Virus record (IMG/VR): IMGVR_UViG_3300042465_005479
Reading direction: 5' to 3' (one strand)
From: an uncultured virus (IMG/VR IMGVR_UViG_3300042465_005479)
Lineage: Duplodnaviria > Heunggongvirae > Uroviricota > Caudoviricetes
DNA: 64,000 nucleotides
Each line of letters opens with the position of its first letter. Within the stretch, counting starts at the first letter, position 1. Below the pieces are notes generated by a model that was not told the DNA's origin, did not search any database, and saw only the letters and a program-made list of their open reading frames with translations. Positions 524 through 27,913 of this stretch are shown here, in pieces. The position numbers and the translations under genes were made by a program.

Positions 524-1225
524 ATGCAACCACAAGTAACTGACGAACAATTAAAATCATTAAAACATTTCTCGTTTTATCTACAATCATATGGAGCTGA
601 AACCGCTTATAAAGAATACTATATAGAATCGTGTGGTTTAGATTGGGAAGATGAACAGTTTCACTCACCACAAACAAACATATCTATAGAAACTTACGCA
701 AAAATTGATGAAGTTCTTACTGAAATAATTGAATCTAATGAACTATTTGAAAACACTACCACAGATTGTGACCTTAGAGGACAATTAACCCTTGAAATTG
801 ATTGTATTGAAAGAACATTAACAGCGTCCGCAACTCAATGGGAATTTGAAAGTAACGGATTTGAGTTTTCAAAAACTTTAGAAGAAATTTCTGAAGATTA
901 TAGTGAAGAAACATATAACGAAGTTTTAAGGATATTTGAACTGATTGGTGAAAATGGTGAAGGTATGGTACAATTTCAAGGTGGAGGTGATGAGGGGTCT
1001 TTAGATGGTGATATGTCTATTAACGGGTCATCTGAAGATATGCCAAAACTTATTGAAGATATGTTATATCACTGGTTAGAAGAAACTGATGTAGATTGGT
1101 ATAACAACGAAGGTGGTCAAGGTAGTTTTATATTTAATCCATCAGATTCCCAAATTTATTTAAATTTAGAACAAAACTACGAAGAAAATGTTAACGTTCC
1201 GATAAACTTTGAAATAAAATTCTAA
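524..1225 (+). CDS. DUF6878-like acidic protein
   Basis: FQGGGDEG and DWYNNEGGQG motifs; follows DUF6915-like gene; TATTTAT at 504-510. Confidence 0.6.
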   Translation: MQPQVTDEQLKSLKHFSFYLQSYGAETAYKEYYIESCGLDWEDEQFHSPQTNISIETYAKIDEVLTEIIESNELFENTTTDCDLRGQLTLEIDCIERTLTASATQWEFESNGFEFSKTLEEISEDYSEETYNEVLRIFELIGENGEGMVQFQGGGDEGSLDGDMSINGSSEDMPKLIEDMLYHWLEETDVDWYNNEGGQGSFIFNPSDSQIYLNLEQNYEENVNVPINFEIKF

Positions 1226-1230
1226 AATAC

Positions 1231-1261
1231 AAAACCCCCTGATTTATCAAGGGGTTTTTTT
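1231..1261. terminator. bidirectional intrinsic terminator
   Basis: AAAACCCCCTGA-TTTA-TCAAGGGGTTTTTTT hairpin between convergent units. Confidence 0.85.
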
Positions 1262-1264
1262 ATA

Positions 1265-1445
1265 GTCAGGTTGGAAGTTCAATAAGTAAGTTAAAAAGAG
1301 TTTTAAGTTTTGACAAATTAATTTTGAACTGCTGAGTGTTGAGGTTTGAGTACTTAATCATCATCAAAACGTCGAGGACTCTGTTAATAGTTTGTATGTT
1401 GAATATTGATAGTCAATATTACATTACATTAAATCCCTCCCGGAC
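1265..1445 (-). ncRNA. putative structured ncRNA downstream of DIP1984-like gene
   Basis: ORF-free; nested helices 1445-1434/1276-1265, 1382-1378/1301-1297, 1370-1361/1316-1307; perfect 8-bp hairpin 1402-1420; loop with CTCAAAC/CTCAACA/CTCAGCA/GTTCAAA. Confidence 0.65.
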
Positions 1446-1451
1446 ACTGAA

Positions 1452-1889
1452 CTATATATTGGTGATTTGGTTATGGTTGTCCAAAATATCCTGAATTTCT
1501 TCAATTTGGTTTTCCATATGTTTAACCATCTCGTCTCTCTCAACAATTGAGATTTCCGTCACTTTTACTAATGGTGTCTCACGATTTCTTGAGTAGTAAT
1601 CTTGAACACTTCCTTCGTTACAATCCAAGTTTTTGATTCTTGTAATCATAGATTTCAATTCCGATAATCTAAAAATGTGATTATATACCGGACCATTTGC
1701 TCTGTGGATGTTTGTTTTAAGTTCCACCAACTCATTACTTTTTTGGTTGATTTGCTCCATACATTCTTTAGCCGAATATGGTCTAACATTACCAACCTCA
1801 ACTGAGTTGTATGTCGCCACTCTAACGTGCAAATCTTGAATCTCTTTAACCAATCGGTTTTTCTCTTTTAAAGCTTTCTTTATATTCAT
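1452..1889 (-). CDS. DIP1984/DUF6847-like coiled-coil protein
   Basis: MNIKKALKEKNRL...LVELKTNIHRAN...EIQDILDNHN matches recalled DIP1984 pattern (M+LAEAL..R..L / L...I..tN / LD..IQ..N). Confidence 0.6.
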   Translation of the reverse strand: MNIKKALKEKNRLVKEIQDLHVRVATYNSVEVGNVRPYSAKECMEQINQKSNELVELKTNIHRANGPVYNHIFRLSELKSMITRIKNLDCNEGSVQDYYSRNRETPLVKVTEISIVERDEMVKHMENQIEEIQDILDNHNQITNI

Positions 1890-1918
1890 AATAAAATTGT
1901 TTTGTTCTTTGTTTGTAT

Positions 1919-1946
1919 AGTATAATCATTTTTTACCGGAAGTCAA
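1919..1946 (-). promoter_or_regulatory. sigma70-like promoter TTGACT-N16-TATACT
   Basis: Upstream of 1889 start. Confidence 0.5.
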
Positions 1947-2287: not shown

Positions 2288-3028
2288 TTACATTATGTAT
2301 TTCAAAACCCATTCACCATCCCACTTTTTAACTTGAGATTTAGGAACCCAAAATTCCATTTCACCAATCTCTTCAACTCTTCTCAAGTAATCCTCACGGA
2401 ATCTGTCGGCTTGATTTATGTCAGTGATGTAAGGGATTCTCATATGTTTAGCACAAGTCTTTCCAACACCTGTTAACATTGAAAACTCATCAGTCAATGT
2501 TTTAGCACAACATCTACAAACTTTACTTCTTCCTGTTGTCATTTTTCCTGAGAACTTGAACGCCTTTGGAGAAACTGCCAACAACTTAGTAATGTCAATA
2601 ACCATTGGATTAAATTCTAATCCGTAAGTCTCTTTCATTTGTTGACCAATTTTACGTCCAACAGTTACCGTATCACCCGGAGTAGGAATTTTGAAATTGC
2701 GAGTATCCTCTTTATCAATATCCTTTTGGATTTGAGTTAACGTAGCGTTTACTTGTTTGTCAGACAATGTTCCGTATTTAAGTAACTTACCTTTTATTTC
2801 ATTGACGAAACTATTTGGTCCATCATACTTAGCAATCTTTTGTAAGTTTTCAGACATTGTTTCAACATTAACGGTTTGAACACTTTTAAGTGCTTTCTCA
2901 GCGAATTCCACTTGTTTAGGTGTTAAGTTTCCCCATTTTTCCAAAGATGATTTAATACTTAATAAAAATTTGTTAGAACCTTGGTAATTTCTAACTTTTG
3001 ATGTCGTTGATGTGGTGGTAGTTGTCAT
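2288..3028 (-). CDS. DUF6011-like zinc-finger protein (start revised to 3028)
   Basis: CRCCAKTLTD..S...GVGKTCAK motif; internally repeated 'L.KyG.L+.KQV' unit; promoter at 3050-3080 lies inside the longer ORF call. Confidence 0.65.
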   Translation of the reverse strand: MTTTTTSTTSKVRNYQGSNKFLLSIKSSLEKWGNLTPKQVEFAEKALKSVQTVNVETMSENLQKIAKYDGPNSFVNEIKGKLLKYGTLSDKQVNATLTQIQKDIDKEDTRNFKIPTPGDTVTVGRKIGQQMKETYGLEFNPMVIDITKLLAVSPKAFKFSGKMTTGRSKVCRCCAKTLTDEFSMLTGVGKTCAKHMRIPYITDINQADRFREDYLRRVEEIGEMEFWVPKSQVKKWDGEWVLKYIM

Positions 3029-3049
3029 AGTATATCTGTTTTGTGAGTA

Positions 3050-3080
3050 CAAAGATAATACTATTTTTGATATAAACAAA
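3050..3080 (-). promoter_or_regulatory. Bacteroidota-type promoter TTTG-N19-TATCTTTG
   Basis: Exact match to the -33/-7 consensus. Confidence 0.85.
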
Positions 3081-27658: not shown

Positions 27659-27834
27659 TATTCTCCCCCTTTTCTTTCAGATAAAATCTCTTTTCTTAGA
27701 CCATCTAATAATTTTTTTAAATCTTGTGCTGATTTTCTAGCTCTTGTTCCGGCGCTATTATTACCACCGAAAAATTTTGTTGTGTCTACTGATAGTTCTT
27801 CTACCAATGACTTAATTTGTTCTAACGTTTCCAT
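27658..27834 (-). CDS. histone H1-like (Hc1 family) protein (not in ORF track)
   Basis: 58 aa METLEQIKSLVEELSVDTTKFFGGNNSAGTRARKSAQDLKKLLDGLRKEILSERKGGE; GN.sAGTRARK motif. Confidence 0.8.
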   Translation of the reverse strand: METLEQIKSLVEELSVDTTKFFGGNNSAGTRARKSAQDLKKLLDGLRKEILSERKGGE

Positions 27835-27913
27835 CTGAATAATTTTAATTTATTTATTTTTTATAATAGTAAAAGTAATTTTTTTTACCCTATAGTAAAT
27901 ACTATCACCCTTT

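Follow-up and report, generated by a model that had tools for sequence, protein, structure and literature searches.

The locus at 1231–1946 on the minus strand of an uncultured virus (IMG/VR record IMGVR_UViG_3300042465_005479) raises the question of what the long ORF-free stretch behind a small gene encodes, and whether it yields an RNA that works with the protein. In the following, the window refers to the whole stretch of 64,000 nucleotides (64 kb) that was analysed.

Organization of the transcription unit

The locus was found to form a single transcription unit, consisting of a promoter, a 145-aa gene, an ORF-free element of ~190 nt and an intrinsic terminator (Table 1). The promoter, the ORF and the terminator had all been called in an earlier reading made from the letters alone (hereafter the sequence-only reading), and each was recovered on the minus strand. 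Additionally, a TTGAC(T/A)...TATAnT promoter lies ~30 nt 5' of the ATG in most of the clades listed, among them some whose upstream gene is not the same, in agreement with the description of the gene as self-contained. On the opposite side, a DUF6878 gene (524–1225, plus strand; family assigned by Pfam search) converges on the unit.

The spacing had also been described as unusually long, and indeed the ORF-free stretch (1226–1451) measures 226 nt and ranks second among the 53 gaps of the window, which have a median of 23 nt. The sole longer gap (27659–27913) is accounted for by a 58-aa ORF inside it. A hidden small ORF within the RNA element was rejected because the stop-free stretches shift in frame and length from clade to clade, and a search of the 64-kb window for tRNA and tmRNA returned none. 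Our reading of the stretch is that a large freshwater phage carries a moron-like unit here, in which a host-type promoter would drive, as a single transcript, the protein and a non-coding RNA of ~190 nt that stops short of the intrinsic terminator. Jointly with the RNA–protein reading developed below, this interpretation is given a probability of about 0.55.

Table 1. Coordinates of the features assigned to the unit and to its RNA element in the window.
Feature	Position	Strand	Basis or remark
Sigma-70-type promoter, TTGACT-16 nt-TATACT	1919..1946	-	10/12 consensus matches
145-aa DIP1984/DUF6847-like helical protein gene	1452..1889	-	ORF; stop codon UAG at 1454-1452
Conserved structured RNA element (whole)	1262..1455	-	Model R1, 193 bits; no second match in the 64 kb
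P1 5' arm	1424..1454	-	Begins on the stop codon
Variable hairpin P2 (AAUAUUGA-CUA-UCAAUAUU)	1402..1420	-	Different complementary stems in relatives; some clades only
Conserved unpaired motif AUACAAAC (family consensus yUACAA)	1390..1397	-	Alignments
GAU-repeat block (GACGUUUUGAUGAUGAUUAAG)	1353..1373	-	Alignment; pairing with the GUCAAAAC block weakly supported
Periodic block, about seven UCAA-type units, near-invariant GUCAAAACUUAAAACUC at its end	1298..1350	-	UCAA counts and spacing
P1 3' arm	1262..1289	-	Carries the recurrent UUGAAC/UGAA motif at 1282-1277
End point of RNA-library contigs from three runs	1265	-	Pairs with the G of the stop codon; base of the helix; weak hint
Intrinsic terminator	1231..1258	-	12-pair stem followed by a T run; the convergent DUF6878 gene shares it

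A conserved RNA element linked to the gene

A folded RNA of ~190 nt lies behind the gene of a small helical protein in many large freshwater phages, and it is absent from the RNA catalogues searched. The element was located behind the gene in all 29 close loci, two of them truncated by the contig end, and the nearest virus record (272 kb) carries a single copy. With model R1 at E ≤ 1, all 54 viral loci tested had a match immediately after the gene, and 51 of them were also detected at E ≤ 0.01. Among the loci from freshwater MAGs, the match stood at the expected place in 6 of 15, and the others showed similar arms and motifs by eye. Two proposals of the sequence-only reading are borne out by these counts, namely a conserved RNA downstream of the homologs and its tie to the gene. 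Protein identity over the element-bearing loci extends from 100% down to 36%. Furthermore, an exact 17-mer from the periodic block was found in 40 viral loci, in 32 of which it lies 120–140 nt behind a DIP-like gene; the remaining loci comprise one 3' partial copy and seven chance matches within other sequence. In 14 of the 29 close loci a Cys-rich ORF of 62 aa sits between gene and RNA, so that direct adjacency of the two is not required. Since the RNA always occurs behind the gene, the two probably act together, and they are probably an undescribed RNA–protein unit, as judged from the sequences.

No Rfam family was found to match the element. With Rfam 15, the whole window had 0 matches at the gathering threshold, the 25 weak matches between 1200 and 1500 at E up to 10 were all far under gathering, and in 10 diverse loci, searched at E ≤ 0.5, the element drew no match.

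The closing helix P1

The pairing of the two ends of the RNA, already claimed from the letters, was seen in the sequence and is supported by covariation. P1 starts at most 13 nt from the stop codon in 25 of 25 clade representatives, and at most 3 nt from it in about half. The arm sequences vary among about 19 clades with complementarity kept. In an alignment fitted to the structure, in which sequences of one clade are not independent, 88.9% of the pairing cells were filled by pairs, compared with 63.8% after shuffling (0/500) and 36–51% with slid partners, and double changes occurred at all 21 P1 pairs. An alignment-free comparison of the arms gave -20.9 kcal/mol for cognate and -13.5 kcal/mol for non-cognate combinations, the cognate arms winning in 55 of 56 elements and in 18 of 19 clade representatives. 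Relative to shuffles, the arm duplex reached a median z of -2.8, with 38 of 56 elements below -2 and the window's own duplex at only -1.07.

The sense strand is stabler than the antisense strand in 48 of 56 elements and in 14 of 19 clade representatives. G.U pairs are common in P1 (one pair, for instance, is GU in 20 cases and AU in 26); they favour the sense strand, and the element is therefore an RNA. Within the 3' arm, UGAA is present in 11 of 24 clade representatives (3.1 expected), and an enrichment of GGAU in the 5' arm was not significant (8 of 24, 5.1 expected).

The conserved interior

The interior of ~100 nt is conserved in sequence and not in helices. The nested inner helices drawn in the sequence-only reading were not upheld as conserved structure, as RNAalifold found no consensus helix in the interior. 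For AGAGU/ACUCU, cognate strands gave -3.5 kcal/mol against -3.3 for non-cognate strands and were better in 32 of 56 elements, and for GUUUUGAUGA/UUGUCAAAAC with UGAUU/AAUUA the values were -5.5 and -4.7 (35 of 56). On the latter figures, a conserved pairing of the GAU block with the GUCAAAAC block was not found either, and this candidate was dropped. The hairpin AAUAUUGA/UCAAUAUU fared better in part: it is present in the window, and close relatives carry different yet complementary stems, but many clades lack it, and taken as a class it falls short of significance (median z -0.2, with 2 of 25 below -2). P2 was consequently rejected as a family-wide feature. The stability of the window copy was also discarded as support, since its z of -2.63 is due to the terminator included in the fold; without the terminator, z is -0.48 and 64 of 200 shuffles are equally good.

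The periodicity, on the other hand, was retained. The run CUCAAAC-CUCAACA-CUCAGCA-GUUCAAA is present as claimed, and its UCAA period of 7–8 nt is kept across clades, with six to seven UCAA-type units per element. In 19 clade representatives, UCAA was counted 70 times against 16.6 expected, and spacings of 7–8 nt and 14–16 nt were observed 24 and 20 times, respectively. The 17-mer of this block is exact across loci whose proteins are just 50–59% identical. No conserved helix was detected over the periodic block, either by RNAalifold or by the cognate/non-cognate test. The repeats do lie in what had been called an apical loop, but a long, mostly unpaired conserved core is the better description.

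Occurrence in RNA libraries

Part of the stretch was found in 23 RNA runs from 23 metatranscriptome studies. In the 4 runs examined, contigs fall within 1265–1899, and one of them (1265–1538) bridges the boundary between ORF and RNA. Contig depth over the RNA and over the ORF was 34.8 vs 3, 9.85 vs 4, 5.1–7.6 vs 2–3.1 and 3.8 vs 2.1, respectively, figures to be read with the caution that strand, ends and level of such contigs are not reliable and that DNA carry-over in RNA libraries is not excluded. The contig X1 has an 18-letter loose end at 1265, which we take to be sequencing adapter. The flanks 1100–1235 and 1916–2100 had no cover by RNA-library contigs, which is not evidence of silence.

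The DIP1984/DUF6847-like protein

The likeness to the DIP1984/DUF6847 family, suggested in the sequence-only reading, proved weak by HMM and clear by fold. The window protein scores below the cut-offs of both NCBIfam DIP1984_fam (NF038048; E 6.2e-8, 32.9 bits, cut-off 70) and Pfam DUF6847 (PF20935; 19.9 bits, cut-off 27). A relative with 39% identity (L153) scores 36.7, above the Pfam DUF6847 cut-off, and the canonical member L170 scores 163.4. For the predicted model (pLDDT 92.1), the top fold match was 3kdq_A (E 1.2e-2, probability 1.00, TM 0.67/0.64), all other matches having a TM of 0.37 or less. On the evidence of this model, whose fold matches 3KDQ and nothing else, the window protein is a distant member of the family with HMM scores below the cut-offs. 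It shares 15–18% identity with canonical members. L7, L78 and N140 are the only invariant residues over 55 family sequences, and no catalytic motif is conserved. A search of one viral collection yielded 219 relatives of the gene.

According to structure prediction, the protein associates with itself as a homodimer, which bears out in part the oligomer proposed earlier. The homodimer model scored 0.60 against 0.00 for the best control, with at least 96% of contacts shared between runs and a partner pLDDT of at least 88; this mark is passed by 20 of 30 proteins solved as one-chain pairs, compared with 1 of the 23 whose structure holds a single chain. As 3KDQ is a solved relative with 4 chains, the pass may reflect a structure already familiar to the predictor.

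PADLOC models at E ≤ 0.1 gave no match to the protein, PHROGs yielded chance-level rows only (E ~0.006–0.009), and a PDB sequence search with the phage profile returned uL29 only (E 0.047). No cultured phage was matched by the gene, its only matches in that comparison being two unannotated records of uncultured megaphages at 31–32% identity. The structure 3KDQ comes from Corynebacterium diphtheriae and was solved in 2009. Members of the DIP1984 family are often annotated as "septicolysin" on Acinetobacter plasmids; PMC5559437 cites this annotation, and the name is not known to rest on a test. A literature search for DIP1984, DUF6847, PF20935, NF038048 and WP_000761346 found none of them; "septicolysin" alone appears, never together with "sRNA", and a search on 3KDQ returned unrelated papers only.

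Helix-closed RNAs at canonical DIP1984 loci

All eight canonical DIP1984 loci (8/8) carry a closing-helix RNA downstream of the gene, starting 20–62 nt after the stop. Its order is an outer helix of 6–12 bp, an RGCGA loop and an inner helix of 4–6 bp, followed 118–172 nt on by a 3' side that runs from the inner strand through UGA (UGG at one locus) to the outer strand. Each locus has its own helix sequences. We propose that a helix-closed non-coding RNA behind the gene is a trait shared across DIP1984/DUF6847; it stands outside the curated definition of the family. Model R1 recovered 0 of 4 canonical loci at E ≤ 1 and thus gives no evidence that the phage-type and canonical RNAs descend from one ancestor. 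In the canonical loci, Rfam identified nothing but tRNAs. Canonical members were present on 369 plasmid records, 340 of which belong to Acinetobacter, and L170 adjoins tRNA genes.

Proposed mode of action and alternatives

The transcription unit itself and, for the RNA, its conservation, its closing helix, its periodic motif, its linkage to the gene and its presence in RNA libraries are the observations from which our model starts. We infer processing, binding and a role as a particle. In the reading that we prefer, with the probability given above, the RNA would be stable and processed and would partner the predicted dimeric protein. After the last ribosome leaves, P1, which starts on the stop codon, would form, and the RNA, once trimmed or cleaved where the helix has its base, would outlive the coding part. 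The helix encloses ~100 nt of conserved, mostly unpaired RNA with the UCAA units, yUACAA, the GAU run and UUGAAC. Protein dimers would read either the single-stranded repeats or the internal loop rich in purines. The RNA would act with the protein, most likely as an RNA–protein particle. It is also conceivable, although we would wager somewhat against it, that the DIP1984/DUF6847 proteins and the helix-closed RNAs directly behind their genes represent one ancient mobile RNA–protein system that has reached giant phages as well as the plasmids, islands and chromosomes of many phyla. The dimer may then polymerise on, or count, the 7–8-nt repeats of its own RNA and form a defined particle of new function, for example in defence, counter-defence or the control of host RNA metabolism.

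The strongest competitor, which we regard as unlikely, holds that the RNA works apart from the protein, as a sponge or decoy that occupies an RNA-binding protein or a ribonuclease of the host, for example in host takeover or counter-defence, with the protein merely co-expressed or acting at another step. The long, unpaired and sequence-conserved core with its six to seven repeated units resembles known protein sponges such as CsrB/RsmZ and CrcZ; the host-type promoter looks strong, contig depth is greater over the RNA than over the ORF, and an ORF can intervene between gene and RNA. However, the gene–RNA linkage holds across 36–100% protein identity and at canonical bacterial and plasmid loci, which is hard to explain without a shared function, and we know of no host factor that reads UCAA units.

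Less probable still is a purely cis-acting 3' untranslated element, in which the stop-codon helix, together with the terminator, would shield the mRNA of the DIP1984-like gene or set its timing, and nothing would act in trans. Its placement between stop codon and terminator, the start of P1 within 13 nt of the stop codon in 25/25 clade representatives and the one RNA-library contig covering both ORF and element are all consistent with this explanation. Yet a stabiliser needs a helix and not ~100 nt of conserved unpaired RNA with a fixed period of 7–8 nt, the 17-mer is invariant where the proteins are only 50% identical, and the contigs of three runs end at the helix base, before the terminator (a weak point).

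The RNA-antitoxin suggested in the sequence-only reading, i.e. a toxin–antitoxin or abortive-infection-like pair in which the RNA would neutralise the protein, is considered improbable. A self-contained unit on phages, plasmids and islands, whose RNA always accompanies the protein, would fit such a pair, as would the 369 plasmid records (340 from Acinetobacter) and the position of L170 beside tRNA genes, but the defining features of type III systems are lacking: the RNA lies 3' and not 5' of the gene with no terminator between them, the repeats measure 7–8 nt and are not processing units of at least 34 nt, the fold is helical and 3KDQ-like and not ToxN-like, PADLOC has no match, and no catalytic motif is kept across the family, in which L7, L78 and N140 alone are invariant. 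Finally, a DNA element, with heptad iterons between inverted repeats serving as operator, partition site or origin bound by the protein, is very improbable: its short direct repeats of 7–8 bp do resemble the heptad arrays of ribbon-helix-helix proteins, such as those bound by omega of pSM19035, and canonical members sit on plasmids, but arm complementarity is kept through G.U pairs, which are mismatches in DNA, the sense strand is favoured in 48/56, the arm sequences are free with pairing kept, and the element lies inside a transcript seen in RNA libraries.

If the RNA–protein reading is true, a dedicated RNA partner would be the first functional clue for a family with a structure from 2009 and no known role. 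The label "septicolysin" on hospital Acinetobacter plasmids is misleading for the DIP1984 family. The RNA itself is a new family, widespread in freshwater phages and of unusual design, in that a long closing helix with covariation surrounds a core that is conserved, unpaired and periodic. At ~720 bp and self-contained, the unit can be moved into a laboratory strain for direct testing.

Comparison with known systems

In type III toxin–antitoxin systems (ToxIN, CptIN, TenpIN), a repeat RNA with repeats of at least 34 nt is located upstream of the toxin gene, with a terminator between the two. The present unit shares with them a protein gene tied to a repeat-bearing RNA on phages and plasmids, and differs in how gene and RNA are ordered, in the length of the repeats, in the fold of the protein and in having no terminator between its parts. 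The TnpB reRNA and omega RNA are guide or scaffold RNAs made from the 3' end of the gene of their partner, and 6S RNA and Y RNA are stable RNAs with paired ends. Similarly, the window RNA is made behind its putative partner gene and has 5' and 3' ends paired in a long helix around a large interior, but it has no nuclease or transposon context and no Rfam match to any of these under either gathering or E-value thresholds.

A standard kink-turn consists of a canonical helix, a 3-nt bulge, tandem G.A/A.G pairs and a non-canonical helix. In the canonical loci, RGCGA lies opposite UGA by the outer helix in 8/8 (UGG in one), between covarying helices, and about half of the phage clades carry UGAA in their 3' arm, opposite GGAU or GAU by eye; in the window, GAU lies opposite UGAA by eye. 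Unlike the standard motif, the canonical loop has one extra U, and the phage loop is symmetric, with no 3-nt bulge. With the DIP1984/DUF6847 family, the window protein shares its length, its helix order and 3KDQ as the sole clear fold match, and its relatives pass the Pfam cut-off; the window RNA is set apart by its UCAA-periodic core, and R1 links it in neither direction with the canonical RNA.

In the HutP–hut and TRAP–trp leader RNAs, oligomeric proteins read short repeats on single-stranded RNA, HutP recognising UAG-N4 with a period of 7. Those RNAs are 5' leaders that switch a terminator, whereas the window RNA follows its gene and has its ends joined in a long helix; the protein folds are unrelated, and the model obtained here is that of a dimer. 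Like them, the window element presents a short motif at a fixed small spacing on unpaired RNA (70 UCAA vs 16.6 expected), and its putative partner is a small protein predicted to self-associate.

Transcription unit and genomic context

The promoter, 145-aa ORF, ORF-free stretch and terminator described in the sequence-only reading were all located on the minus strand at 1231–1946 (see table). The unusually long spacing claimed after the gene also holds, as the ORF-free gap (1226–1451) ranks second by length among the 53 gaps of the window (median, 23 nt), and the single longer gap contains a 58-aa ORF. The neighboring genes (151–501, 524–1225 and 2288–3079) all carry domains of unknown function, DUF6915 (E 2.1e-33), DUF6878 and DUF6011, and locus L044 keeps the gene order DUF6011 gene, 112-aa gene, DIP-like gene. 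Additionally, 94% of the sampled words of the window are common to a 272-kb virus record (91% complete), and its likeness to cultured phages is only faint.

Features of the unit and of an additional ORF found in related loci
Feature	Location	Strand	Remarks
Promoter, TTGACT-16 nt-TATACT	1946–1919	-	heads the unit
ORF, 145 aa	1889–1452	-	after the promoter; stop codon UAG at 1454–1452
Stretch without conserved ORF, 190 nt	between ORF and terminator	-	
Intrinsic terminator	1258–1231	-	common to the unit and the convergent DUF6878 gene
62-aa Cys-rich ORF	L003:3440–3628	+	same place in L004–L007, L009–L011, L016, L020, L023, L025, L026, L028

The promoters of the unit, in the window and in the compared loci, are of the TTGACA/TATAAT type, and the MAG bins with relatives are mostly Bacteroidota, whose house-keeping promoters differ from this type; this leaves the host, or else the binning, uncertain. 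An 8-mer in the gene's 5' leader (1890–1918), AUACAAAC, is identical to the conserved yUACAA motif of the RNA (1390–1397), and this leader copy is retained in close clades only.

The 145-aa protein

The proposed likeness to DIP1984/DUF6847 proved correct, the protein being a distant superfamily member. The protein scored below the curated cut-offs of both NCBIfam DIP1984_fam (E 6.2e-8, 32.9 bits; cut-off 70) and Pfam DUF6847 (19.9 bits; cut-off 27), the latter being passed by a relative at 39% identity. The structure model, made from 55 relatives, reached a pLDDT of 92.1, and its sole clear fold match was 3KDQ (TM 0.67/0.64; every other match ≤0.37), a functionally unknown C. diphtheriae protein that a canonical family member matches by sequence (E 1.6e-26). 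A homodimer model scored 0.60, compared with 0.00 for the best control; among proteins of solved structure, the mark was passed by 20 of 30 one-chain pairs and by 1 of 23 single chains. This pass may reflect memorization, since the solved 3KDQ structure has four chains. The homodimer runs had at least 96% of contacts in common, with a partner pLDDT of at least 88.

Linkage of the RNA element to the gene

A profile search of the viral collection yielded 219 relatives, and the 80 best matches were retained. The element was present behind the gene in all 29 close viral loci, two of them cut by the contig end. In diverged loci (48–59% identity), the 170–200 nt past the stop codon again contained two arms able to pair, the shared core motifs and a terminator. 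R1, the covariance model of the element built from the close clade, matched directly behind the gene in 54/54 viral loci at E≤1 and in 51/54 at E≤0.01, with one match each in the 64-kb window and the 272-kb record. Fifteen MAG contigs, mostly from freshwater Bacteroidota bins, encode relatives at 36–53% identity; R1 matched the expected place in six, and the rest show similar arms and motifs by eye. The exact 17-mer GUCAAAACUUAAAACUC was found in 40 viral loci, comprising 32 copies 120–140 nt behind a DIP-like gene, one partial copy and seven chance matches inside other sequence.

Among the 29 close loci, 14 have a 62-aa Cys-rich ORF with two CxxC pairs between the gene and the element. The start of this ORF overlaps the stop of the gene, and the element then begins on the ORF's stop codon; the ORF had no match in Pfam or PADLOC. 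Just beyond the terminator of the RNA, L044 (1605–2600) and L061 have a 280-aa lipoprotein-like gene on the minus strand. Behind this gene, the last ~75 nt of the RNA and the terminator occur a second time, in a copy with the sequence variant of another clade. This gene looks like a moron acquired via recombination at the conserved RNA end.

Conserved motifs and structure of the element

A core of about 100 nt retains its sequence across elements and includes a yUACAA motif, a run of GAU, and UCAA-type units in a block that ends in UUAAAACUC. Across 19 clade representatives, UCAA occurs 70 times against 16.6 expected (0/1000 shuffles), with spacings clustering at 7–8 nt (24 times) and 14–16 nt (20 times); the proposed heptamer periodicity is therefore real and conserved. 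UGAA (inside UUGAAC) is found in the 3' arm of 11 of 24 representatives (3.1 expected), opposite GGAU or GAU in an internal loop as judged by eye. GGAU itself showed no enrichment.

The ends of the element pair, as had been claimed, in 88.9% of cells on a model-fitted alignment biased towards structure, compared with 63.8% in shuffles (0/500) and 36–51% with slid partners, and both-side changes were seen at all 21 pairs. Because this alignment leans to structure, alignment-free tests were added. In 56 distinct elements, pairing of the 50 nt at the 5' end with the 62 nt at the 3' end gave a median z of -2.8 (38/56 below -2), and cognate arms paired at -20.9 kcal/mol compared with -13.5 with arms of other clades, the 5' arm preferring its own 3' arm in 55/56 elements and 18/19 representatives. 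In the window itself, the arm duplex is weak (z -1.07), and the fold of the complete element is no better than that of its shuffles (z -0.48). Among the inner helices of the sequence-only reading, the hairpin 1420–1402 exists and shows compensatory substitutions among close clades, but is absent elsewhere, and the others are not conserved across relatives. Overall, the element is very probably a real, conserved, structured RNA.

Possible function

Parts of the stretch are contained in 23 RNA runs from 23 studies (lake, river, estuary and one marine metatranscriptome). In the four runs mapped, contigs fall inside 1265–1899, and one (1265–1538) spans the ORF-element boundary. Contigs from three runs end at 1265, one of them with an 18-letter loose end, presumably sequencing adapter. 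The element contig was deeper in every run (34.8 vs 3; 9.85 vs 4; 5.1–7.6 vs 2–3.1; 3.8 vs 2.1); because these contigs give neither strand information nor a reliable level, they hint only weakly at an RNA that is processed and stable, with its 3' end at the helix base, upstream of the terminator stem.

We favor, with a probability of about 0.55, a reading in which a stable RNA, which would derive from the 3' end of the gene's own transcript, works with the predicted dimeric protein, most likely as a putative particle in which the protein would read the repeated units or the purine-rich loop. Next to the constant linkage of element and gene, an RNA acting alone on host factors is rather unlikely. 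The closing helix begins no more than 13 nt from the stop codon in 25/25 representatives (no more than 3 nt in about half), a position that would suit a purely cis-acting 3' element; we consider this reading improbable. A PADLOC search with the protein matched no family, and a type III-like toxin-antitoxin pair is very doubtful. The sense strand outdoes the antisense in stability in 48/56 elements and 14/19 representatives, which, together with the common G.U pairs of the closing helix, points to an RNA of the gene's own sense rather than to a DNA cruciform; a DNA iteron site built on the repeats is highly improbable.

Comparison with canonical DIP1984 loci

Our literature search found no paper mentioning DIP1984, DUF6847, PF20935 or NF038048, nothing linking septicolysin with sRNA, and, for 3KDQ, only papers unrelated by listing; a passage of PMC5559437 only repeats the septicolysin annotation. 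Canonical DIP1984 genes are rare in sampled genomes (over the cut-off in 1/201 and 4/401); they are frequent on plasmids (369 records, 340 from Acinetobacter), where members are annotated 'DIP1984 family protein' or 'septicolysin'. Two plasmid loci come with annotation, which shows no feature for 322 and 371 nt behind the gene. In L170, two tRNA genes (1211–1420) lie directly upstream of the canonical gene, and the non-coding region downstream of it contains a T-arm-like hairpin, GUGGGUUCGAUCCCCAC; this may be a remnant of integration at a tRNA gene.

Rfam matched no family in the downstream region of the canonical loci. All eight (L170–L177) possess a helix-closed architecture beginning 20–62 nt past the stop codon. 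Its 5' side consists of an outer helix of 6–12 bp, an RGCGA loop and an inner helix of 4–6 bp; the matching strand of the inner helix returns 118–172 nt further on, followed by UGA (UGG in one locus) and the matching outer strand. The helices covary, each locus having helix sequences of its own, and shuffles average at most 1.5 bp. Helix closure is an architecture shared by the window-type and canonical RNAs; their common descent is unsupported because R1 reached no match at the canonical loci. The canonical loop has a signature similar to that of the kink-turn, but with one unmatched U.
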